From the UHGV virus genome UHGV-0119950: a DNA stretch of 53,290 nt. One strand, written 5' to 3'. The notes under the pieces were generated by a model. It searched no databases, was not told the DNA's origin, and worked only from the letters and a program-made list of their open reading frames with translations. Origin of the DNA: a virus. The first letter of the stretch is position 1. The number at the start of each line of letters is the position of its first letter. The position numbers were made by a program, and so were the translations under genes. Below, one piece after another: positions 3,761 to 53,240 of the stretch.

Positions 3761-6700
3761 TTATGCCTGTACGCGCAGCGCTTCAAGACGGCGCACATCA
3801 AAATCGTTGAGTTCTTCGGCGTAATCTTCGGTAATCGGCGCTGGCCATTCGCCAGTGTCGAACCCGTTCGCTATGGCGCGCATCGCTTTGCGGTATTCCA
3901 GCATGCCGAGTTCAAGCAGTTCTTCGGATGCCTCGATGATGGCGATCCAGTGGTAGTTCTCGTCTTTGTTGACGAATATCCAGAAAAACTGGTCCAGCGC
4001 TGCGGTTTCGCAGTACATGGCAGCGCTCAGGTGATAATCGCGCTCGATGATTTCCCGGTGCAGTTTGGCGCGTAGGCCTTCCTGCTTGATATTCCACATG
4101 CTGATAGTCTTCAGGTCAGCGCCGATGCGCAGGCCGCCCATGTCGATTTCAAGGTCTGGCCGCACGCGGATTTCCAGCCCGGTTTCCTCATCAATACCGA
4201 AATAGCTCACTTCTACGGCGCGGTTCGGATGCGTCAGCAGCTTCCCGGCGGTCGGGTGATTCAGCAGCGCTTTCTGGATGGCCTGCGCGGTGCTCAACTG
4301 CTGGCGGGTAACCAGAATTTTATCGCCGGGATTTTCTCGCCAAGCGTCAAGCAGCTCGTCGGCAAACACTGTTTCAGGTTTGACGGTTTTCACTGTCTGA
4401 ATCAGATCCGCTTTGGTGCCGGATACTTTCAACGGCTGTGGCTTCTGTGCTTCCTGTGCAACGAGATCAGGATTGATGATCGCCAGTTGCTCAAGCAGCG
4501 CGTCACGGCTTCCGCTGGTTTTCACCTGCGGCGGAAGGGTGGCGTTGTACTCTTTGATGCAGGCCTTCATTGCTGTGGCGGTATGCTTGGTTCCGTTCTC
4601 AATACGCTGGAACTCTTCAGGCAATTGCTCATATGATGCATACGATTCGTCAACGGATGCCCCAAGCGGTAACGGTGCGGGCAGGGTGGTGTTGTACTCT
4701 TCCAGTAGCGCTTTTATATCGTCGGCACTAAGCAGCGGCGGCAGGCTGGCGTTGTGCTCGTCGATAACCGCGCGGATCGTCGCTGTCGTCGTAAGCGCGC
4801 CTTCCGGGATTTCCGGTTCGATGCTGAACTCTTTTTCCAGTTGTTCAGGCTGTAACGCCAGCGCATGCACCAGGTTCCCCATATCCAGGACTTTGGTGCG
4901 TTCTTTCTGGATGGTTTTGGATACGTGGCGCGCCTCGAAATACATCAGCGATACCCGCGCATCTTTTACCATCGTCGAACTGATGCCATTCGCCGCGTGA
5001 TATACCTCGTTCGGTACGCCTTCATAACGCCCCGGCTCGAAGTATTCCGGCCACACTGGCGTTGGTTCTTCCTGTTGCGCTTCTGGCTCAGAATGGCTTG
5101 CAGAATCGTTGTTCTGGCTCACTTCCGACTGATTGTGGTCTACATCGGCTTGCTCGCCGGTATCTGCTTCTTCACCATTCCCCAAATCGCTTTCGCTTGT
5201 ACGCAGCGCATCACCAGTCTGTTTTTCATCACTGACAGTTTCTTGAACCTGCACATCGCTGGTGGTCTCCGCTTCCTGTTTTGTGCCATGAGTTGAGGAG
5301 TTCTGCATTAAAGCGGACACGTCGAAAATGTCGTCTGCAACTTTTTTCACCAGTTCAGGTTGCTCGGTTTGCTGGCTTGTCTCTGTCTTCACCCATTTCG
5401 GATCATTTGGGTCGCTGATACCCGGAACGAATTCACCGCGACCGGCGGCAAGCTGGCGTTCAACCTCTTCGCGGAGTAACTCAAGCGCAGAAGTGACCTT
5501 CTCGGGTGCCGGAGCCATCGGCATTGGCATTGATGAGCGACCGCAGGCGATATCAACGATCATTTCATCCGGGTGAGCGTGATCGGTTTCAGTCATGACA
5601 CGATTGAGATACTCGCGATGACGGAAAGGAGATTTAAACAGTTCCTCTGGCGTTGTTTTTACCGTAGCGACATTGCAGGCGCGGGAGTAATCCATCCCAC
5701 CAGGCATTTCTTCAAACAATTTGCAGGTCGCAATAAATTCATCGAGTACGTTATCTTCCCCTGAGCGGGAGAGATTCATAATGGCGTTGGCTTCAACATC
5801 GATCTCGAAGGAAGGGCTGTAAATATCGAACTCTTTGTTACGGGCGATCAGGCCAAGTGCTATTTCATATTCGAGCCCGGTTTTTGTCAGTGGAGTAAGA
5901 CGGTCAGTCTTATTACCGCCACCGGCGTTCGCGCCAGATGGTGTGCGATTAATTTCAGATACACGATTACCTTTGCACCACTCTTTAACGAGCAGCCCGC
6001 GATCAATATGAGGGGTATCGAACCATGTTTTCAGAAACTGGATAACGCTTGCCAGCTCAGGGATTTTGCCATCGGCAGGAAACACGCTCTTAACAGCATT
6101 TACCGCTTTATGGATATCGTGTTCAATGGCCTTTTTGAATGGTTCAACATTCTCAGCCGCAAGTAAAAGGTTCTGGACATATGAATTATCTGTGTCCATT
6201 TCCAGAGCGAGAATTGCTTTTTTCTGCTCTGCGTCGACATGATAGAGATACTCGCCATCGCCAATATGTTGAGCCAGAACACGATGACGGAAGGGCATTG
6301 TTGCCACAACGGTTAACTGAGGGTGTTCAGGTAGATCGCCATTGTCTTCAGTTGACGCCTGATCGTGCTGGATAATTTCGCCAGTTTCGGTATCGACAAC
6401 TTCTTCATTGCCAAAATCTTCCGTGTGATCTTCCAGCACTTCACCTGTTTCGGTATCAACACCATCAACGATACGCTGACGGGCGACGGCAACGGCCTCA
6501 GAAGAGGGCAACGTAACACCGGGGATCTGTACCCAGGTCATGTTGTCTTTGCCGAGTTGGTAGAAATCGCAGAACGTTAAGCTGAGTTCGCCTTCTGGCG
6601 GAAGCTCGTTAACGACGGGGAAATTAGTGGCAACAGCTTTAAAATAATCTTTCAGCTTTGCGCCGGATTTAATCAGGAGATAATCCAGTGTGGCATTTGC

Positions 6701-6796: not shown

Positions 6797-6920
6797 TATT
6801 TGATCCTCAATTCGTGTAGAATGGAGGCGCCTTAATGGCACCTCGGTTTTACCAGGTGATGTCCGGTGTAACTTTGGTCGGTGCCACCGGACGGAAGGCC
6901 CACCCTGTGTGGGCTTTCGC

Positions 6921-8530: not shown

Positions 8531-8565
8531 ATAAAAAACCCGGCTCGGTGGCCGGGTGTTTTTAG
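8531..8565. terminator. Bidirectional intrinsic terminator
   Basis: Stem CCCGGC (8539-8544) / GCCGGG (8551-8556). A T-run follows on the plus strand (TGTTTTT) and TTTTTTATT on the minus strand. Sits between convergent genes. Confidence 0.8.
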
Positions 8566-8954
8566 TTACACGCGAATTTTATACCATCTAGTGTTGTGTT
8601 TTTAAGGATGTCTTCGGCATAAAATTTGAAGTAAACCCTCATCAAAGATGAAAAATACCAAGTATATTCCTTTAAAAAATCCTCATTGAGATTTTCGCTT
8701 TTTGGATAAGAGAAAATCATTCTAATGTCGATTTTTAGAGAAAAATCTGGTTTTTCACTGCCTTTCCTGAACCCTTGAGCGATGGGGCTTGCTGAAACTT
8801 TAATTGATGACATTGATGGATCGCCACCACCGACTTCAAAATCTAAGGCGCCATATACAACCTTGATCGTGCCCTCACCAGGTGTAAGCATGGTTTGATT
8901 GAACTCCACGTTTAGAATCGCAGATTCAACCATGTTGATATCGTTAGGCAACAT
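8562..8954 (-). CDS. Hypothetical 130-aa protein, possible SecB-like chaperone (remote, by-eye similarity)
   Basis: Third gene of the coupled cassette. FSLKIDIRMIFSY and LKEYTWYFSSLMRVYFKFYAEDILKNTTLDGIKF line up with SecB AFLCEVQQGGIFSI and [36 protein letters not shown] (E. coli SecB from memory). AT-rich. Confidence 0.6.
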   Translation of the reverse strand: MLPNDINMVESAILNVEFNQTMLTPGEGTIKVVYGALDFEVGGGDPSMSSIKVSASPIAQGFRKGSEKPDFSLKIDIRMIFSYPKSENLNEDFLKEYTWYFSSLMRVYFKFYAEDILKNTTLDGIKFACN

Positions 8955-9363
8955 TTATCTCATAATCCCTGTTTTGAGGCTTAATGGTAATCTTGATGAC
9001 TGGGCTTGGTTCGTCCATGAAACTATTTAAATTCATAACGTAGTGCTTATGAGCAGGTATAACAGGATGAGAAACATCACATCCATTCTTCAGGATTACT
9101 ACTTTTGCTTCGGCACCTAGAGCGTAGGAAATATCGGAGAGGGTTTTTAGTGTCATGTTCCTAGTTCCATCTAGCAACTGAGAAACATGCGAAGCCGACT
9201 TGCCAAGTTTTTTAGCAAGTTCACGCTTAGTTATACCTGTATCCTGCATAGCTAAAAGGATGTCTTCTGTAGTATTGAACACTAATCGTTCGGAAGCCAT
9301 CTCTCTATCACTAATGTATGGAAAACCAAAAATTTCTTCTGCGAAAGTCTTATCAGTAGTCAT
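8944..9363 (-). CDS. XRE-family HTH protein, 139 aa, candidate antitoxin with C-terminal extension
   Basis: Central HTH ITKRELAKKLGKSASHVSQLLDGTRNMTLKTLSDISYALG. About 45 aa follow the HTH domain. 11-nt overlaps with both neighbours. Confidence 0.8.
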   Translation of the reverse strand: MTTDKTFAEEIFGFPYISDREMASERLVFNTTEDILLAMQDTGITKRELAKKLGKSASHVSQLLDGTRNMTLKTLSDISYALGAEAKVVILKNGCDVSHPVIPAHKHYVMNLNSFMDEPSPVIKITIKPQNRDYEINVA

Positions 9364-9781
9364 CTAAACCTCTCTCGATTCTCTCCCAGTTGTTACAAAC
9401 TTTTTGGACATCAGAATCGCTTAAATCATCAAAATCTTTGTAGATGTAATGACTCATAAAATAAGTCATTGATACTCTCTCCGACTCCCAGTAGTACCCT
9501 CGAATAGGTATCTTCTTTATAGCCCAGAAATTTTTTTTAGGTTTGCCATTGTAAGAAGGCAGTATTCCTTCCTTTCTGACGCTGAGATCTGGAGTTCTTT
9601 TACCTGATGCCAGGCGCTCTATTTGTAGTCTAAGCTTGACCATCATGGCTTTTTGCTTCTTAGCAGGAGTAACACTCAGTATCGCATCAGCTAGAGTTTT
9701 TAGCGCTCCATTACAATGGGTTACAGTGAAGCAAGCGCCCTTAAAAGTATGTTGAACCATCCACTTATCCATAGTTAACAT
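9353..9781 (-). CDS. Hypothetical 142-aa protein, candidate RelE/HigB (Gp49/DUF891-like) toxin
   Basis: The pattern KLRLQIERLASG...FWAIKKIPIRGYYWES...YFMSHYIYKDFDDLSDSDVQKV resembles the HigB/Gp49 layout (…YRxxY…hHaFxKKxxxTPxxDI…). Lies upstream of the HTH gene, the HigBA order. Start codon uncertain (ATG 9781, 9772 or 9760). Confidence 0.6.
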   Translation of the reverse strand: MLTMDKWMVQHTFKGACFTVTHCNGALKTLADAILSVTPAKKQKAMMVKLRLQIERLASGKRTPDLSVRKEGILPSYNGKPKKNFWAIKKIPIRGYYWESERVSMTYFMSHYIYKDFDDLSDSDVQKVCNNWERIERGLDDY

Positions 9782-9875
9782 ATATATTAACTCACAATTT
9801 GCAAGTGAGCCACCTTCATCTTATAGAGATAATCCGAAAAGCATGATGGTTAGCAATTCATGTCCTTATCAACTC

Positions 9876-10031
9876 TCAAAGGGACATACCGATAACGGCA
9901 TTAACCACACTTGACGCCATAAACACGCCGCCAACGATGAAGCTGGCCTGGTTCTTCCTGGTAGCGCCAAGAGTCAACAGAACCACTGAAAGGGCAAAGA
10001 AAGGTATCGCGATTATGCTGAACGTGTTCAT
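9876..10031 (-). CDS. Small hydrophobic protein, 51 aa (two predicted TM segments), below the ORF-track cutoff
   Basis: Hand translation: MNTFSIIAIPFFALSVVLLTLGATRKNQASFIVGGVFMASSVVNAVIGMSL. SD GAGG 5 nt upstream. Starts 12 nt after the repressor stop. Confidence 0.55.
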   Translation of the reverse strand: MNTFSIIAIPFFALSVVLLTLGATRKNQASFIVGGVFMASSVVNAVIGMSL

Positions 10032-10043
10032 GTTGACCTCAAG

Positions 10044-10433
10044 TTATTGCGATTCTCCGTCACCCTTAATCCGTCGCCCCATGTACTTCGCGTACAGCTC
10101 GTCGAGCTCCTTCAGTCGCAGAGATACGATCCGCAACATGTTCTGCTGCTCTTCTTCCGGCAGCTGGCGATAGAGTTCCAGCAGGCGCTGCTCGTCAGGC
10201 TTCATACCATCTTTCTCGCCGACATCTTCCCCGAGCAGCCAGGCGACCGAAACACCAACAGCATCGGCTATAGCCAGTGCTGATTTTTTGCTAATAACGC
10301 CTTTTTTAAACCAGCTATTGACCGCCTGAGGCGAGACTCCGGCTATTCGCGCCATATCTGCTTTGGTAATGCCTCTGGCATAGACCTCGTTGAGTCGCGC
10401 TATCAATGCTTTGTTGGGTTCTTCTTTTCTCAT
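10044..10433 (-). CDS. Prophage repressor (CI-like, HTH_XRE) lacking an S24/LexA-type cleavage domain
   Basis: 129 aa from the ATG at 10433. HTH ITKADMARIAGVSPQAVNSWFKKGVISKKSALAIADAVGVSVAWLL. The short helical C-terminus has no Ala-Gly/Ser-Lys peptidase motifs. Divergent from the cro-like gene. Confidence 0.8.
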   Translation of the reverse strand: MRKEEPNKALIARLNEVYARGITKADMARIAGVSPQAVNSWFKKGVISKKSALAIADAVGVSVAWLLGEDVGEKDGMKPDEQRLLELYRQLPEEEQQNMLRIVSLRLKELDELYAKYMGRRIKGDGESQ

Positions 10434-10534: not shown

Positions 10535-10768
10535 ATGACAGCACTTGATAAAGCAATTAAGGCCGCTGGTTCAGCGAGAAAGCTAAGCATGGCACTTGGT
10601 GTAACCAGTATGTCAATTAGCCATTGGAAACATCGCGACAGAGGCATTGTGCCGCCAGATTACATATTAAAAATTCACAGCATAACCGGTGTTACTCCCC
10701 ACGAATTGCGCCCTGATCTGTATCCGAACCCAACGGATGGATTACCGGCGCAGGAAGCGAGGGCGTAA
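10535..10768 (+). CDS. Cro-like / YdaS-family HTH regulator
   Basis: 77 aa. HTH SARKLSMALGVTSMSISHWKHRDRGIVPPDY. SD AGGAGAAG. First gene of the rightward early operon. Confidence 0.8.
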   Translation: MTALDKAIKAAGSARKLSMALGVTSMSISHWKHRDRGIVPPDYILKIHSITGVTPHELRPDLYPNPTDGLPAQEARA

Positions 10769-16825: not shown

Positions 16826-17082
16826 TGGATCAACTTCTGCAATACGCCACCAATCGGATTATAGAACTGGAAAACCTTCTGCTGGTGAATGTTGAGGAAA
16901 CGGTCTGGCCAGCAGAGGTTCAGATGGTTTTTAGTCAAATCGAAAACGCCGGGAGTTTCCCGGCGCACCACCAGCGCCGATTGCAGCACCACATCAACAG
17001 AATGTGGCTGGAAAAAATACCGGTTACTTCGATTATTGCCGCAGCGCGCTCGCTGGCAGATGCAATGGAGAAATACGCGTGA
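16822..17082 (+). CDS. Hypothetical protein
   Basis: 86-aa ORF, ATGA coupling. Confidence 0.55.
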   Translation: MMDQLLQYATNRIIELENLLLVNVEETVWPAEVQMVFSQIENAGSFPAHHQRRLQHHINRMWLEKIPVTSIIAAARSLADAMEKYA

Positions 17083-19160
17083 GAAATAGCGAAATCATTG
17101 TTGATAATTTTGCTGGTGGCGGCGGTGCTTCCACTGGAATTGAGATGGCGACTGGCCGCAGCGTGGACATTGCGATTAACCACGATCCGAATGCCGTTGC
17201 GATGCACACGACAAACCACCCCAATACACTGCATTATTGCGAATCTGTCTACGATGTCAGGCCGAAGGTAGCGACCGCCGGGCGTCCGGTGGCGCTGGCG
17301 TGGTTCTCGCCGGATTGCCGTCACTTTTCAAAAGCCAAAGGTGCGAAGCCGGTAGAGAAAGCGATCCGGGGTCTGGCCTGGGTAGTTCTGCGCTGGGGGC
17401 TGGATGTAAAACCCCGGGTGATGAAACTGGAGAACGTCGAAGAATTTAAAACGTGGGGCCCTTTGCTCGCTGGTGAAATGAGGCCAGACCCGGCCCGTGC
17501 TGGAGAAAATTTTGAGGCGTTCATTGGTATGCTGACTACTGGCATCCGGGCTGACCACCCGGCACTGGCGGAGTGCTGTGAATTTCTGGGTATTTCTCTT
17601 GATAGTGAAGACGCCGCGAGGCTGATCAAAGGGCTGGGCTACATCGTCGAGTATCGCGAGTTGCGCGCCTGCGACTACGGTGCGCCGACGATCCGCAAGC
17701 GATTCTTTATGATTATGCGTTGTGACGGGAAACCGATTGTGTGGCCTGAGCCAACACATGGCGATCCGAAATCACCGGCTGTCCAGGCTGGTAAGCTGGC
17801 ACCGTGGCGCACAGCTGCGGAGTGCATAGACTGGACAATTCCGGCTCCATCGATATTCGATCGCAAAAAGCCGCTGGCAGAAAATACCCTTAAGCGCATC
17901 GCGCGCGGCATCCAGCGATTTGTTATCGACAGTGCGTCGCCGTTTATCGTGAAGTGCAACCACACCAGCAGCCGTTCAAGTTATGATTGTTTCCGTGGGC
18001 AGCCACTGGAAGAACCCCTGCAAACGATCACGAAAAAGCATGGTTACGCCGTCGCAGTACCACATCTGACGAAGTTCCGTACCGGCGCAACCGGGCAGGA
18101 AGTCACCGAACCTGTACCGACTGTAACAGCTGGCACGTCGGCGCGCCCGGGTGGGAATGGTCATGCGCTTGGTATCGTTGAAGCTGCGCTGACTCCGTTC
18201 CTGGCTGGTAATGGCGGCAGTGAGTACCAGGCTAAGCCGCGCCCGCTGGATAAACCAGCTCACACTATACTGAAACAATCCCGGGCATGTGTCGTTGCGC
18301 CGGTTATCGCCCGACAGTTTGGCGCCAGCACCGGCCACCGCGCAGATGAGCCGAACGCGACTATTACCGCTGGTGGCGGCGGTAAATCGCAACTTGTTAC
18401 ATCGACACTGATCCAGATGGGATACGGGGAAAGGCCAGGTCAGGAACCTCGCGTTCTCCAGATCGAAAAACCGTTAGGGACAGTAACCGCTGGTGGAAAC
18501 AAGTTCGCCGTGGCCAGCGCATTTCTGGCGAAGCACTACGGCGGCAACTATACGGGACCGGGCGTCGGGCTGGATGAGCCGACTCACTCAGTTACGACGG
18601 TTGATCATCATGCGGTTGTTGCGGCACATCTAATGGTGAACAACACCGGGCATCCTGGCGGCTCCGTGGACTCTCCAGCGCATACCGTTACAACAGGAAA
18701 TCACCATGCTGTAGTGACTTCTCATCTTGTGCATTTGCGAGGGTTCTGCAAAGACGGTCAAAAAATGGATCAGCCGGTGCCAACGATTACCGCCGGAGGC
18801 CAGCATGTTGGGGAGGTGAAAACCACTCTGGCAGTTGAGCACTACAACGAACAGCGCGCGCAACAGACGTTGGCGTTCCTGCGTGAATATTGCGGCGAAG
18901 ATTGTACCGGGCTGGTGGATATCGACGGGATCACATATCGTATTGTTGATATCGGAATGCGCATGCTGCAACCGCATGAGCTTTACCGCGCGCAGGGCTT
19001 CCCGGACTGGTACATCATCGATCGGGATTATCGCGGCGTGAAGTATGCAAAGGATAAGCAGGTTGCCCGCTGCGGTAATGCTGTGCCGCCACCGTTCGCC
19101 GAGGCTCTGGTAAGGGCCAATTTACCCGAACTTTGCCAGCCGAAAGAAATGGCAGCGTAA
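17079..19160 (+). CDS. DNA (cytosine-5) methyltransferase, 693 aa, with expanded repeat-containing variable region
   Basis: Motif I DNFAGGGG, motif IV FSPDCRHFS, motif VI KLENV, QGFPDWY and motif X GNAVPPPF. GTG start overlaps the upstream stop (GTGA). Confidence 0.92.
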   Translation: MRNSEIIVDNFAGGGGASTGIEMATGRSVDIAINHDPNAVAMHTTNHPNTLHYCESVYDVRPKVATAGRPVALAWFSPDCRHFSKAKGAKPVEKAIRGLAWVVLRWGLDVKPRVMKLENVEEFKTWGPLLAGEMRPDPARAGENFEAFIGMLTTGIRADHPALAECCEFLGISLDSEDAARLIKGLGYIVEYRELRACDYGAPTIRKRFFMIMRCDGKPIVWPEPTHGDPKSPAVQAGKLAPWRTAAECIDWTIPAPSIFDRKKPLAENTLKRIARGIQRFVIDSASPFIVKCNHTSSRSSYDCFRGQPLEEPLQTITKKHGYAVAVPHLTKFRTGATGQEVTEPVPTVTAGTSARPGGNGHALGIVEAALTPFLAGNGGSEYQAKPRPLDKPAHTILKQSRACVVAPVIARQFGASTGHRADEPNATITAGGGGKSQLVTSTLIQMGYGERPGQEPRVLQIEKPLGTVTAGGNKFAVASAFLAKHYGGNYTGPGVGLDEPTHSVTTVDHHAVVAAHLMVNNTGHPGGSVDSPAHTVTTGNHHAVVTSHLVHLRGFCKDGQKMDQPVPTITAGGQHVGEVKTTLAVEHYNEQRAQQTLAFLREYCGEDCTGLVDIDGITYRIVDIGMRMLQPHELYRAQGFPDWYIIDRDYRGVKYAKDKQVARCGNAVPPPFAEALVRANLPELCQPKEMAA

Positions 19161-50176: not shown

Positions 50177-51262
50177 TTACGTATTTACGATATTTTTCTT
50201 AACTTTTGCAGCGCGCGGCGCTAAATGCCGCGCCACTTTCCTTGAAGGTTCTTCTACAATGTGGAAAAGTATATGCGAAATGGCGAAACTTACGCCAACA
50301 ATCAACAAAACATTTGAGAATCCAAGTTTAGGATTATAAAATGGCACGGGAAGGTATTTTTTAAGAAGTACAGTTATTACTATTGTATGTACAAGATAAA
50401 GCGAATAAGAAACGTTGCCCATCCAGTCAAGGATTTTATTTAATTTTATCTCTCTTGTTGTTTCGAATATTGAAAGAGAAAGCAAAAGCATAAAAGCATA
50501 AACACCACAATTTAGCAATCCGTGACCGCCATTATATCCAGACATATAGAAGAATATAAATGCAAAAACAGAAATAAAGAGTAACGGCGCTGATATATTT
50601 TTGAAAGAGTGAATTTTTGCATAGTTATAGATCTGATAGATAACCATCCCAGCGACGAACTCAAGTAGCATTGGCGATGCGAACAGTTTTAGCACCCATG
50701 GGGCGCTAGGGTCGTTTAATGTTGAATATCCACTAAGATTAATCTCACCATTATATAGTATTCCCAAAATAGATACTGAAGCAATTATTATTGCAGTGCT
50801 AATATAAAATCTATTCTTCCAGGAAATCGACATCGCAAATGAAAATATGATGTAAAAAATTATCTCATACGTCAGAGTCCAGGCAGTTGATATCACCGAA
50901 TAACCGAACCAAGGGGCTGATTTCTCAAAGTTTAAGTTAATAAAGAAAAGGGCTTTTAGATAATTAATATCTATCGGCTTTGTGAATATTAATGCGCATG
51001 ACACCAGACATATAAAATAAACAGGGTATAATCTAAAAAAACGCTTCACAATAAATGAACGAACAGAGGAGTCCTTTTCTGTTGACAACATGATTACAAA
51101 TCCACTTATCATGAAAAAAAGATCCACTCCTATGTATCCATAGTTAAACAATATGTTACCCAAATTGCTCTGAGCATAAATATTGTTCAATTCTCCACGG
51201 GCATGATATAAGACGACAAGCAAAGCAGCTATTCCACGGAGGTATTGCAAAGAATAAAGCAT
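50177..51262 (-). CDS. Acyltransferase family 3 membrane protein (O-antigen acetyltransferase-like, Oac/OafA type)
   Basis: 361 aa, about 10 hydrophobic segments. N-terminal LQYLRGIAALLVVLYH motif typical of acyltransferase_3. Very AT-rich, convergent with the tailspike. Confidence 0.85.
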   Translation of the reverse strand: MLYSLQYLRGIAALLVVLYHARGELNNIYAQSNLGNILFNYGYIGVDLFFMISGFVIMLSTEKDSSVRSFIVKRFFRLYPVYFICLVSCALIFTKPIDINYLKALFFINLNFEKSAPWFGYSVISTAWTLTYEIIFYIIFSFAMSISWKNRFYISTAIIIASVSILGILYNGEINLSGYSTLNDPSAPWVLKLFASPMLLEFVAGMVIYQIYNYAKIHSFKNISAPLLFISVFAFIFFYMSGYNGGHGLLNCGVYAFMLLLSLSIFETTREIKLNKILDWMGNVSYSLYLVHTIVITVLLKKYLPVPFYNPKLGFSNVLLIVGVSFAISHILFHIVEEPSRKVARHLAPRAAKVKKNIVNT

Positions 51263-51535: not shown

Positions 51536-51552
51536 TCATTGAGGTGATTATC

Positions 51553-51972
51553 ATGCAGTTTTTCACGCCTACAGAACCACGCCAGATAGTGTCGCTCCCA
51601 ATGTTTAGTGATCTTGTGCAATGCGGGTTTCCTTCGCCAGCCGCAGATTACGTTGAGTCGCGTATAGACCTTAACGAATTGCTGGTGCGGCACCCAAGCG
51701 CGACGTATTTCGTAAAGTCCACTGGAGATTCTATGCGTGATGCTGGAATCGGCGAGGGCGATTTGTTGGTAGTCGACAGTTCACGAAAAGCAGGGCATGG
51801 AGACATTGTCATTGCAGCGGTCGATGGTGAGTTCACAGTTAAGCGCCTGTTGCTGCATCCGGTTGTCATGCTAAAGCCTGAAAACTCTGTGTATAAACCA
51901 ATCATGATTGGGAGTGAAGACAATCTGGAGGTTTTTGGCGTCGTAACTTACATCGTGAAGTCTGCTGACTGA
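51553..51972 (+). CDS. umuD: Translesion polymerase V accessory subunit UmuD
   Basis: 139 aa from MQFFTP (SD GAGG). [38 protein letters not shown] and [15 protein letters not shown] match E. coli UmuD as remembered. Confidence 0.95.
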
Positions 51973-51974
51973 GT

Positions 51975-53240
51975 ATGTTTGCGCTCGTGGATGTGAACAG
52001 TTTTTATGCGAGCTGTGAAACGGTATTCAGGCCAGACCTCAAAGGAAGGCCGGTAGTCGTTCTCTCTAACAACGATGGCTGTGTCATTGCGCGTTCGGCA
52101 GCAGCGAAGCCCTTTGTGAAAATGGGGGAGCCCTATTTCAAACAAAAAGAGACTTTTCGCCGTCACGGCATCGTCGCGTTCTCCAGTAACTATGAGCTTT
52201 ACGCTGATATGTCGAACCGCGTAATGACAACGCTGGAAGAAATGAGTCCTCGCGTCGAAATTTACAGCATAGACGAGGCATTTTGCGATCTTACTGGTGT
52301 GAGAAACTGCCGTGACCTTACTGAGTTTGGCCGGGAGATCCGCACTACAGTATTACAGCGTACACATCTCACCGTCGGTGTCGGTATTGCGCAGACAAAA
52401 ACCCTCGCGAAACTGGCTAACTATGCGGCAAAGAAGTGGCAACGACAGACTGGCGGCGTTGTTGATTTATCGAACCTTGATCGTCAGCGTAAACTCATGG
52501 CAGTACTGCCTGTTGATGATGTATGGGGTATCGGGCGACGCATTGGCAAGAAACTTCAGGCGATGGGCATCAAAACTGCTCTTGACCTGGCTGATACAGA
52601 TGGCCGGTTTATCAGGAAGCATTTCAATATTGTGCTCGAAAGAACGGTACGCGAGCTGCGTGGTGAGCCGTGTCTGGAACTGGAAGAGTTTGCACCAGTA
52701 AAGCAGGAGATCGTCTGCTCACGCTCTTTCAGTGGTCGTATCACTGCTTACGAAGAGATACGCCAGGCGATATGCAGCTACGCATCACGCGCAGCGGAAA
52801 AGTTACGGGGCGAGCATCAGTATTGCCGGTTTATCTCCGCGTTCGTGAAGACAAGCCCGTTTGCACTGAACGAACCGTATTACGGCAACAGTGCCTCTGT
52901 GAAGCTTCTGACCCCGACGCAGGACAGCCGGGACATTATCGACGCGGCCACGCGATGCCTGGATGCTGTCTGGAAAGACGGACACAGGTATCAGAAGGCT
53001 GGTGTGATGCTTGGTGACTTCTTCAGCCAGGGCGTGGCGCAACTAAATCTGTTTGATGACAACGCACCGCGCGCTGGTAGCGAAAAACTGATGGAAGTGC
53101 TGGATCATCTCAATGCCAAAGACGGCAGAGGAACACTGTATTTCGCAGGGCAGGGCATACAACAGCAATGGCAGATGAAACGGGAGATGCTCTCACCGCG
53201 ATATACCACTCGATATGAAGACCTTTTATGTGTTAAGTGA
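51975..53240 (+). CDS. umuC: Translesion DNA polymerase V catalytic subunit UmuC
   Basis: 421 aa. MFALVDVNSFYASCETVFRPDL...VVVLSNNDGCVIAR...YSIDEAFCDLTGV is closely parallel to E. coli UmuC as remembered. Confidence 0.96.
   Translation: MFALVDVNSFYASCETVFRPDLKGRPVVVLSNNDGCVIARSAAAKPFVKMGEPYFKQKETFRRHGIVAFSSNYELYADMSNRVMTTLEEMSPRVEIYSIDEAFCDLTGVRNCRDLTEFGREIRTTVLQRTHLTVGVGIAQTKTLAKLANYAAKKWQRQTGGVVDLSNLDRQRKLMAVLPVDDVWGIGRRIGKKLQAMGIKTALDLADTDGRFIRKHFNIVLERTVRELRGEPCLELEEFAPVKQEIVCSRSFSGRITAYEEIRQAICSYASRAAEKLRGEHQYCRFISAFVKTSPFALNEPYYGNSASVKLLTPTQDSRDIIDAATRCLDAVWKDGHRYQKAGVMLGDFFSQGVAQLNLFDDNAPRAGSEKLMEVLDHLNAKDGRGTLYFAGQGIQQQWQMKREMLSPRYTTRYEDLLCVK

Follow-up and report, generated by a model that had tools for sequence, protein, structure and literature searches.

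A three-gene cassette on the minus strand of the UHGV virus genome UHGV-0119950 probably forms a self-contained toxin–antitoxin–chaperone (TAC) module, in which a chaperone-addicted antitoxin would restrain a RelE/HigB-fold toxin until an infecting phage triggers abortive infection. The genome was analysed as one stretch of 53,290 nucleotides (nt), hereafter the window, and the module occupies approximately 1.3 kb of it (8558-9874), an AT-rich moron inserted in the immunity region of a lambdoid prophage, at the end away from the repressor. Sequence comparison places the cassette in what appears to be a distinct TAC lineage, with no detectable sequence homology to the HigBAC system of NT1F31 apart from a weak similarity between the chaperones. 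The evidence comes from the gene structure, the predicted folds of the toxin and the chaperone, conservation of the gene trio and of an operator, the pattern of divergence within the cassette, and reuse of the chaperone with a second type of toxin–antitoxin (TA) pair.

Gene structure and predicted folds

Three minus-strand open reading frames (ORFs) are called in the module, at 9353-9781 (gene 1, 142 amino acids (aa)), 8944-9363 (gene 2, 139 aa) and 8562-8954 (gene 3, 130 aa), in agreement with an earlier note on this DNA that described three overlapping genes here. Gene 2 overlaps each of its neighbours by 11 nt; the two overlaps, which that note called identical, share their length but not their sequence (ATGACTACTGA versus ATGTTGCCTAA). 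The AT-richness that it described is borne out by a GC content of 38.5% for the module against 50.2% for the whole window, and equally low values occur in 2.2% of sliding windows of the module's size, all of them within a second moron near 50 kb. The bidirectional terminator that it placed at the end of the cassette is likewise present as a terminator-like hairpin at 8538-8557 with T-runs on each strand, which closes both the cassette and a convergent DUF2767 gene and is common to phage mEp237 and P22-like Salmonella phages. Phages without the cassette define its borders, with HK97-type homology stopping at 9875 and P22-like DNA at ~8556.

The start of gene 1 is almost certainly the ATG at 9760, yielding a 135-aa protein (9353-9760), because its relatives are 134-135 aa long, a palindrome at 9774-9791 lies over the opening codons of the 142-aa ORF, and several orthologous loci have an in-frame stop behind the upstream ATG; the 142-aa length adopted in the earlier note is therefore revised. 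This 18-bp palindrome, GTTAAYATATATRTTAAC, is a predicted operator that is kept upstream of gene 1 in 15 of 15 aligned enterobacterial loci, whose further flanks are unrelated, and it is unique within the window (0.00 matches expected by chance). It contains a -10-like element at 9777-9782, TATGTT in the window and TATATT in most relatives, separated by a 16-nt spacer from a -35-like TTGCAA box at 9799-9804 on the minus strand. In most of these 15 loci a CTTGCA, CTTGAA or CTTGTA box precedes the palindrome by 7-8 nt, in upstream DNA that is otherwise unrelated. A consensus promoter scan did not call this conserved -35/-10 pair, which has 8/12 matches in the window and 9/12 in most relatives. 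Solely from its conservation across loci, we propose that the pair and the palindrome constitute a putative autoregulated promoter of the cassette's own, and type II TA precedent suggests that the palindrome would be bound by a dimer of the helix-turn-helix (HTH) protein encoded by gene 2.

The AlphaFold2 (AF2) model of gene 1, built from an alignment of 28 sequences and, like that of gene 3, as a monomer, has a predicted local distance difference test (pLDDT) score of 90.2, a predicted template-modelling (pTM) score of 0.86 and a β-β-α-α-β4-α topology. It is closest to Streptococcus pneumoniae HigB and Mycobacterium tuberculosis HigB1, followed by Vibrio cholerae HigB2, ParE, RelE, YoeB and YafQ, and the Foldseek ranking agrees with the structural comparison. 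Gene 1 is accordingly modelled as a RelE/HigB fold, a recognised type II toxin family, in line with the layout that the earlier note had read from the protein, and we designate it a predicted HigB1/gp49-type toxin. The invariant residues K82, R87 and K108 lie on the β-sheet, at strand positions comparable to those of R68, R77 and K95 in HigB-TAC. Gene 1 has no match in Pfam, NCBIfam, PADLOC or PHROG, and its profile has no relevant match among the sequences of the PDB; its kinship with the gp49/HigB1 family, as far as the model indicates, is visible at the structural level only.

Gene 2 is a predicted HigA-like antitoxin of the XRE type, with a conserved N-terminal segment (residues 1-30), an HTH domain (approximately residues 31-91) and a C-terminal tail (residues 92-139). 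Residues 43-83 match Pfam HTH_3 with an expect value (E) of 2.5e-6, and there are weak matches to the HigA and HipB antitoxins; the extension of about 45 residues described in the earlier note corresponds to a tail of ~47 aa. PADLOC additionally matches the HTH to PDC-M64B and PDC-M64C (E 1e-11 to 1e-9). These matches are confined to the HTH, and genes 1 and 3 match no component of PDC-M64, which rules out assignment of the cassette to that system.

The tail (8947-9090, minus strand) resembles a chaperone-addiction domain (ChAD). It carries, in order, a conserved DVSH motif, the aromatic anchor Y108, a β-prone VIKITI stretch, Y134 and a C-terminal Val-Ala, with two conserved aromatic positions, and its layout is alike in the enterobacterial and marine clades described below. 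All antitoxins of the family extend 45-60 aa past the HTH. Validated ChADs are C-terminal extensions of 30-47 aa without sequence similarity between systems, and the tail of gene 2 falls inside this range of lengths. Their chaperone-binding aromatics are W108 and W137 in M. tuberculosis HigA1, and W128, F158, F188 and Y214 in NT1F31 HigA. A ClpXP degron, Val-Ala, is reported at the C-terminus of M. tuberculosis HigA1, and the last two residues of CmdA are Ala-Ala. Among the marine antitoxin tails (gene 2 orthologs of loci L003-L024 and L051-L056, at about 4370-4870 in most), 20 of 24 end in -VA or -AA, with a conserved Trp 4-6 residues before the end, and this ending resembles an ssrA-like ClpX degron.

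Gene 3 (8562-8954, minus strand) is a predicted SecB-fold TA chaperone, or SecB^TA-like protein. Its AF2 model (pLDDT 86.2, pTM 0.80, alignment of 9 sequences) consists of four long antiparallel strands followed by a long helix, and its best 21 Foldseek matches in the PDB are all SecB, among them Haemophilus influenzae SecB (E 1.1e-5), E. coli SecB and Rv1957 (E 1.6e-5, template-modelling (TM) scores 0.73/0.69). The matched Rv1957 structure is that of the M. tuberculosis TAC chaperone bound to its ChAD peptide. Two SecB-fold proteins of unassigned function from outside TACs, 2o2a and 2hng, are also in the Foldseek list. The only PHROG match is to phrog_19522, of unknown function, and a single member of the 54 in the gene 3 family touches the Pfam SecB profile PF02556 (E 0.073). 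The SecB likeness claimed in the earlier note is upheld for the fold, but the alignment made there by eye finds no statistical support from sequence methods.

Conservation, reuse and exchange

From genomes and viral contigs, 55 loci with the gene 1 family were recovered, in 53 of which gene 1 could be delimited. In all 53, gene 1 is followed by an HTH gene and then by a third gene, and neighbouring genes mostly overlap or are separated by tiny gaps. The trio ranges from Enterobacterales to marine Gammaproteobacteria and falls into two clades. In the enterobacterial prophage clade the third gene encodes 130-140 aa and is homologous to gene 3 of the window; gp36-gp35-gp34 of phage mEp237 are such a trio, annotated as hypothetical, HTH and hypothetical proteins. 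In the clade of marine Gammaproteobacteria the third gene encodes 150-180 aa with the motif NVGYHVWPYWREYVQSxCxRxG, and the best match of its profile among PDB sequences is Rv1957 (E 1.5e-4). In the marine clade, then, sequence identifies the syntenic third gene as SecB^TA-like, and in the clade of the window its likeness to SecB is seen by structure alone. None of 5426 complete E. coli genomes contains the cassette at megablast sensitivity.

An exhaustive search of 1.84 billion cluster representatives yielded 61 representatives of the gene 3 family at 50% identity. Five of six sampled distant gene 3 homologs lie directly downstream of HicA-HicB pairs in phage contexts, and the HicB proteins of these trios carry aromatic-rich tails of 35-50 aa past their ribbon-helix-helix domain. 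The HicA-HicB-chaperone trios are located at 185-1360 in locus L061, 1802-2950 in L062, 309-1502 in L064, 1347-2477 in L066 and 127-1320 in L067, with genes for phage antiterminator Q, integrase and S24 repressors as neighbours. It is a known hallmark of TAC chaperones that members of a single family partner different TA warheads, and by this analogy the reuse of the gene 3 family with HicAB independently supports a TA-chaperone role. The sixth distant homolog (locus L068, 1634-2920) belongs to a trio of gene 1-like, HTH and gene 3-like genes in another prophage slot, flanked by a tail-fibre gene on one side and by integrase/excisionase genes on the other, so that the module is evidently not confined to immunity regions.

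Within the cassette, divergence is highly uneven. Across 14 enterobacterial cassettes, pairs share on average 69% identity in the toxin and 63% in the N-terminal segment plus HTH. The corresponding averages are 41% in the chaperone and 22% in the tail, which is the fastest-diverging part. With HTH identity controlled for, tail identity correlates moderately with chaperone identity over the same 14 cassettes (partial rho 0.59, uncorrected for phylogeny). Comparison of mEp237 with the window reveals where the change has taken place: their DNA is 80% homologous over 9105-9839, from the promoter through gene 1 to the HTH part of gene 2, and homology resumes at the terminator, with the intervening tail and gene 3 (8558-9104) replaced. 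At the protein level the two modules are 90% identical in the toxin, 78% in the HTH, 18% in the tail and 29% in the chaperone. In these alignments the tail and the chaperone thus behave as a single exchangeable sub-module, and such joint swapping would be expected if the two partners interact as the specificity or sensor part of the system. Their joint inheritance and divergence also lend indirect support to the proposed chaperone addiction.

We tentatively extend this to the lineage as a whole, in a reading that we hold to be possible but somewhat short of probable. The cassette may represent an unrecognised TAC lineage in which an orphan SecB-fold chaperone and its cognate tail serve as a swappable sensor on at least two warheads (HigB1-like/XRE and HicAB) and in several prophage slots. 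If so, natural swaps of tail and chaperone, as between the window and mEp237, would retarget the same toxin to other phage triggers.

Known systems, proposed mechanism and alternatives

TAC systems have been known since 2011, and a 2013 census listed 49 complete systems on HigBA, MqsRA and HicAB modules and noted indications of horizontal transfer. The order and families of the cassette mirror the M. tuberculosis TAC HigB1 (Rv1955)-HigA1 (Rv1956)-Rv1957, as the earlier note had recognised: the gene order is the same, and the folds are again RelE/HigB, HTH with a tail, and SecB. HigA1 resembles gene 2 in its XRE HTH, ~45-aa extension, two aromatic anchors and terminal Val-Ala, and Rv1957 resembles gene 3 in its SecB fold (TM 0.73), with marine orthologs matching Rv1957 by sequence. 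In contrast, the toxin and the chaperone of the window have no detectable sequence similarity to their M. tuberculosis counterparts; the toxin has an extra N-terminal β-hairpin and lacks equivalents of Q98 and K99 of HigB1; the operator is different; and the module is prophage-borne in Gammaproteobacteria, whereas the M. tuberculosis TAC is chromosomal.

Two E. coli TACs, CmdTAC and MqsRAC, defend against phages (Vassallo et al.), and Mets et al. (2024) described HigBAC in the slot downstream of cI (the RexAB slot) of lambdoid prophages, with data on toxicity, the ChAD and the phage trigger. That work overturns the suggestion, made in the earlier note, that no enterobacterial TAC carried by a prophage in the rexAB slot had been described. 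NT1F31 HigBAC (locus L057) defends against lambda, and its chaperone HigC senses the major tail protein gpV. It shares with the cassette the toxin-antitoxin-chaperone order, overlapping genes, a place in a lambdoid prophage with the repressor on one side and the leftward early genes on the other, and a SecB-fold chaperone that likewise has no Pfam SecB match. It is also the likely functional model, with a phage structural protein outcompeting the ChAD for the chaperone. Component by component, the two systems compare as follows. NT1F31 HigB has 95 aa and matches PF09907 (E 1.3e-30), whereas gene 1 has no PF09907 match and an hhalign probability of 0.6%. NT1F31 HigA has 218 aa with a 96-aa ChAD and four regularly spaced aromatic motifs, compared to 139 aa, a ~47-aa tail and two anchors in gene 2. 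NT1F31 HigC and gene 3 align in register over 26 C-terminal residues, a weak similarity (hhalign probability 22%, E 1e-3). NT1F31 HigBAC is present in 90 of the 5426 complete E. coli genomes that contain no copy of the window's cassette at megablast sensitivity. In toxin type and tail length, the cassette is nearer to the M. tuberculosis prototype than to NT1F31 HigBAC.

Other systems share parts of this architecture. HicAB- and MqsRA-type TACs and CmdTAC also reuse a SecB-like chaperone with different warheads, but their toxin and antitoxin families differ from the HigB1-like/XRE pair of the window. Chaperone-less HigBA pairs of the gp49/gp48 type (phage N15 gp49-gp48 and S. pneumoniae HigBA) have no third gene and no antitoxin extension, and they match PF05973, which gene 1 does not. 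Housekeeping SecB has the same four-stranded sheet and long helix (TM 0.6-0.7 for E. coli and H. influenzae SecB); gene 3 differs in lacking PF02556, in being shorter (130 aa), in having no second C-terminal helix in the model, and in its prophage TA context instead of the yibN-grxC-secB-gpsA operon. HK97 Gp49/Gp48, which occupy the same slot and have HigB/HigA-like sizes, were considered as relatives of NT1F31 HigBA and dropped, as tblastn found no similarity.

Taking the M. tuberculosis TAC and E. coli HigBAC and CmdTAC as models for toxicity, chaperone addiction, degron use, trigger and defence role, we propose the following mechanism. The module would be expressed in the lysogen from its own promoter, with the -10 inside the palindrome, possibly supplemented by read-through transcription out of the repressor operon. 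A gene 2 dimer or the toxin–antitoxin complex would bind the palindrome and repress the promoter, and the three genes would be translationally coupled through their 11-nt overlaps. Gene 1 would act as a ribosome-dependent mRNA endonuclease that gene 2 neutralises via its N-terminal segment and HTH core. The C-terminal extension of gene 2 would render the antitoxin unstable or aggregation-prone unless held by the SecB-fold chaperone of gene 3. If the chaperone were drawn off, with a structural protein of an invading phage as the likeliest cause, the antitoxin would be lost, and the freed toxin would cleave mRNA and abort the infection. Tail and chaperone would then form the sensor sub-module, which diversifies fast and is exchanged as a unit.

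Several observations weigh against this picture. None of the 28 gene 1 family members scores against the gp49 profile PF05973, even at E <= 10, and the putative catalytic residues were mapped by strand position, with no residue-level structural alignment. For gene 3 there is no match in Pfam (including PF02556), NCBIfam or PADLOC, and neither the enterobacterial profile nor a widened 54-sequence profile finds SecB among PDB sequences. The hhalign comparison of the gene 3 family with the marine third gene gives probabilities of 0.8% and 17%, in collinear alignments, and the SecB likeness of gene 3 is drawn from the 9-sequence AF2 model together with synteny. The tail–chaperone correlation is moderate, with the phylogenetic caveat given above. 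The degron idea is only suggestive for the enterobacterial lineage, because the -VA ending varies within that clade, whose tails do not conserve -VA/-AA, and NT1F31 HigA is independent of ClpXP.

The cassette could be a TAC in architecture and yet serve prophage addiction or stabilisation through post-segregational killing, or stress-responsive growth control. Type II TA modules classically stabilise mobile elements, the M. tuberculosis TAC has been described as stress-responsive, and the autoregulated promoter suggested here would be typical of addiction modules. We nonetheless regard such a role as unlikely: all enterobacterial TACs tested so far (CmdTAC, MqsRAC and HigBAC) defend against phages, the slot is a known variable defence locus downstream of cI, and a fast-evolving, horizontally swapped tail and chaperone fit an arms-race sensor that simple addiction would not need. 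The strict synteny and overlap of gene 3 with the antitoxin in 53 loci, its inheritance and exchange together with the antitoxin tail, its place behind HicAB pairs whose HicB is also tailed, and the 45-60-aa extension on every antitoxin of the family make it very improbable that genes 1 and 2 are an ordinary HigBA-type pair beside a SecB-fold protein with another job, such as a holdase for phage or secreted proteins. In favour of that arrangement are the lack of a sequence link between gene 3 and TAC chaperones, the SecB-fold proteins outside TACs (2o2a and 2hng) and the solitary phage SecB reported by Sala et al.

The least probable explanation that we considered dispenses with a toxin, casting gene 1 as a catalytically dead RelE fold that forms with the HTH protein a regulatory pair, such as an immunity or anti-repressor switch, to which gene 3 is accessory. 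M. tuberculosis HigB2 and HigB3 do combine the same fold with an absence of toxicity, gene 1 has no Pfam toxin match, and the cassette is located inside the immunity region. However, invariant basic and aromatic residues occupy the sheet face that is catalytic in relatives, the trio also occurs outside immunity regions (L068 and chromosomal marine loci), and its operator is its own and not one of the shared phage operators. A TAC module with a chaperone-addicted antitoxin and a phage-triggered abortive response is the reading that we prefer.

TAC systems are an emerging class of phage defence in which the chaperone doubles as an infection sensor. Published work already covers the concept, the slot in the prophage and the mechanism, and this cassette leaves that picture unchanged; it is unlikely to surprise a specialist, and its value lies in annotation and as material on ChAD–chaperone specificity. 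A search of the literature collection consulted found no paper on this lineage, although the 2013 census may list some of its marine members, and where present, as in mEp237, the lineage is annotated as hypothetical. The whole lineage escapes current annotation, in a cultivable phage (mEp237), in many Enterobacterales prophages and in marine Gammaproteobacteria, and profiles for the gene 1 and gene 3 families would improve the annotation of defence systems. The natural chimeras, with the same toxin and HTH and a swapped tail and chaperone, offer material for studying the trigger specificity of ChAD–chaperone pairs, and the clean, conserved operator would be useful for studies of regulation.

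Prophage context and neighbouring genes

The window is a complete lambdoid prophage, with an integrase (795-2081), RecET, a repressor, O- and P-like replication genes, terminase, capsid, tail tube and tailspike. The chromosomal flank phoP is only ~81.5% identical to that of E. coli, and the host is therefore an enterobacterium other than E. coli; among named homologs of gene 3, the closest comes from Citrobacter braakii.

The prophage repressor (10044-10433, minus strand) is a short DicA/RstR-like HTH protein of 129 aa that matches Pfam HTH_3 and Phage_CI_repr and NCBIfam DicA and RstR, and a YdaS/Cro-like gene (10535-10768) is divergent from it. Pfam and NCBIfam scans found no S24 peptidase domain in the repressor, and prophage induction therefore probably takes a route other than RecA-stimulated self-cleavage. 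The earlier note placed the cassette directly downstream of this repressor in the rexAB slot; the slot stands, but not the direct adjacency, as a 51-aa ORF with two predicted transmembrane segments (9876-10031, minus strand) lies between them. HK97, HK225 and 69 E. coli genomes share this ORF at 94.8% DNA identity, and it carries no annotation in HK97. It may encode a small membrane protein that is co-transcribed with the repressor.

Elsewhere in the window, an Rfam match to the Hfq-binding small RNA isrB (RF01386, 59.6 bits, gathering score 35) at 6834-6919 on the plus strand lies inside the 5′ part of a recE-like ORF and antisense to it. A 718-aa ORF at 17004-19160 (plus strand) has a partial match to C-5 cytosine DNA methylases in two stretches, the better at residues 624-704, and no domain is assigned over most of the protein. 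Beside the tailspike, on the opposite strand, an Acyltransferase_3 gene (50177-51262, minus strand) lies where the GC content of the window is lowest (~35%); it is probably a lysogenic-conversion moron that modifies the O-antigen. Just past this tailspike/acyltransferase end of the prophage lies a pair of ORFs at 51544-53240, in which a 421-aa ORF (51975-53240, plus strand) matches the impB/mucB/samB family of UmuC-type polymerases and the 142-aa ORF just upstream of it (51544-51972) would be UmuD-like, a guess from its size and position.

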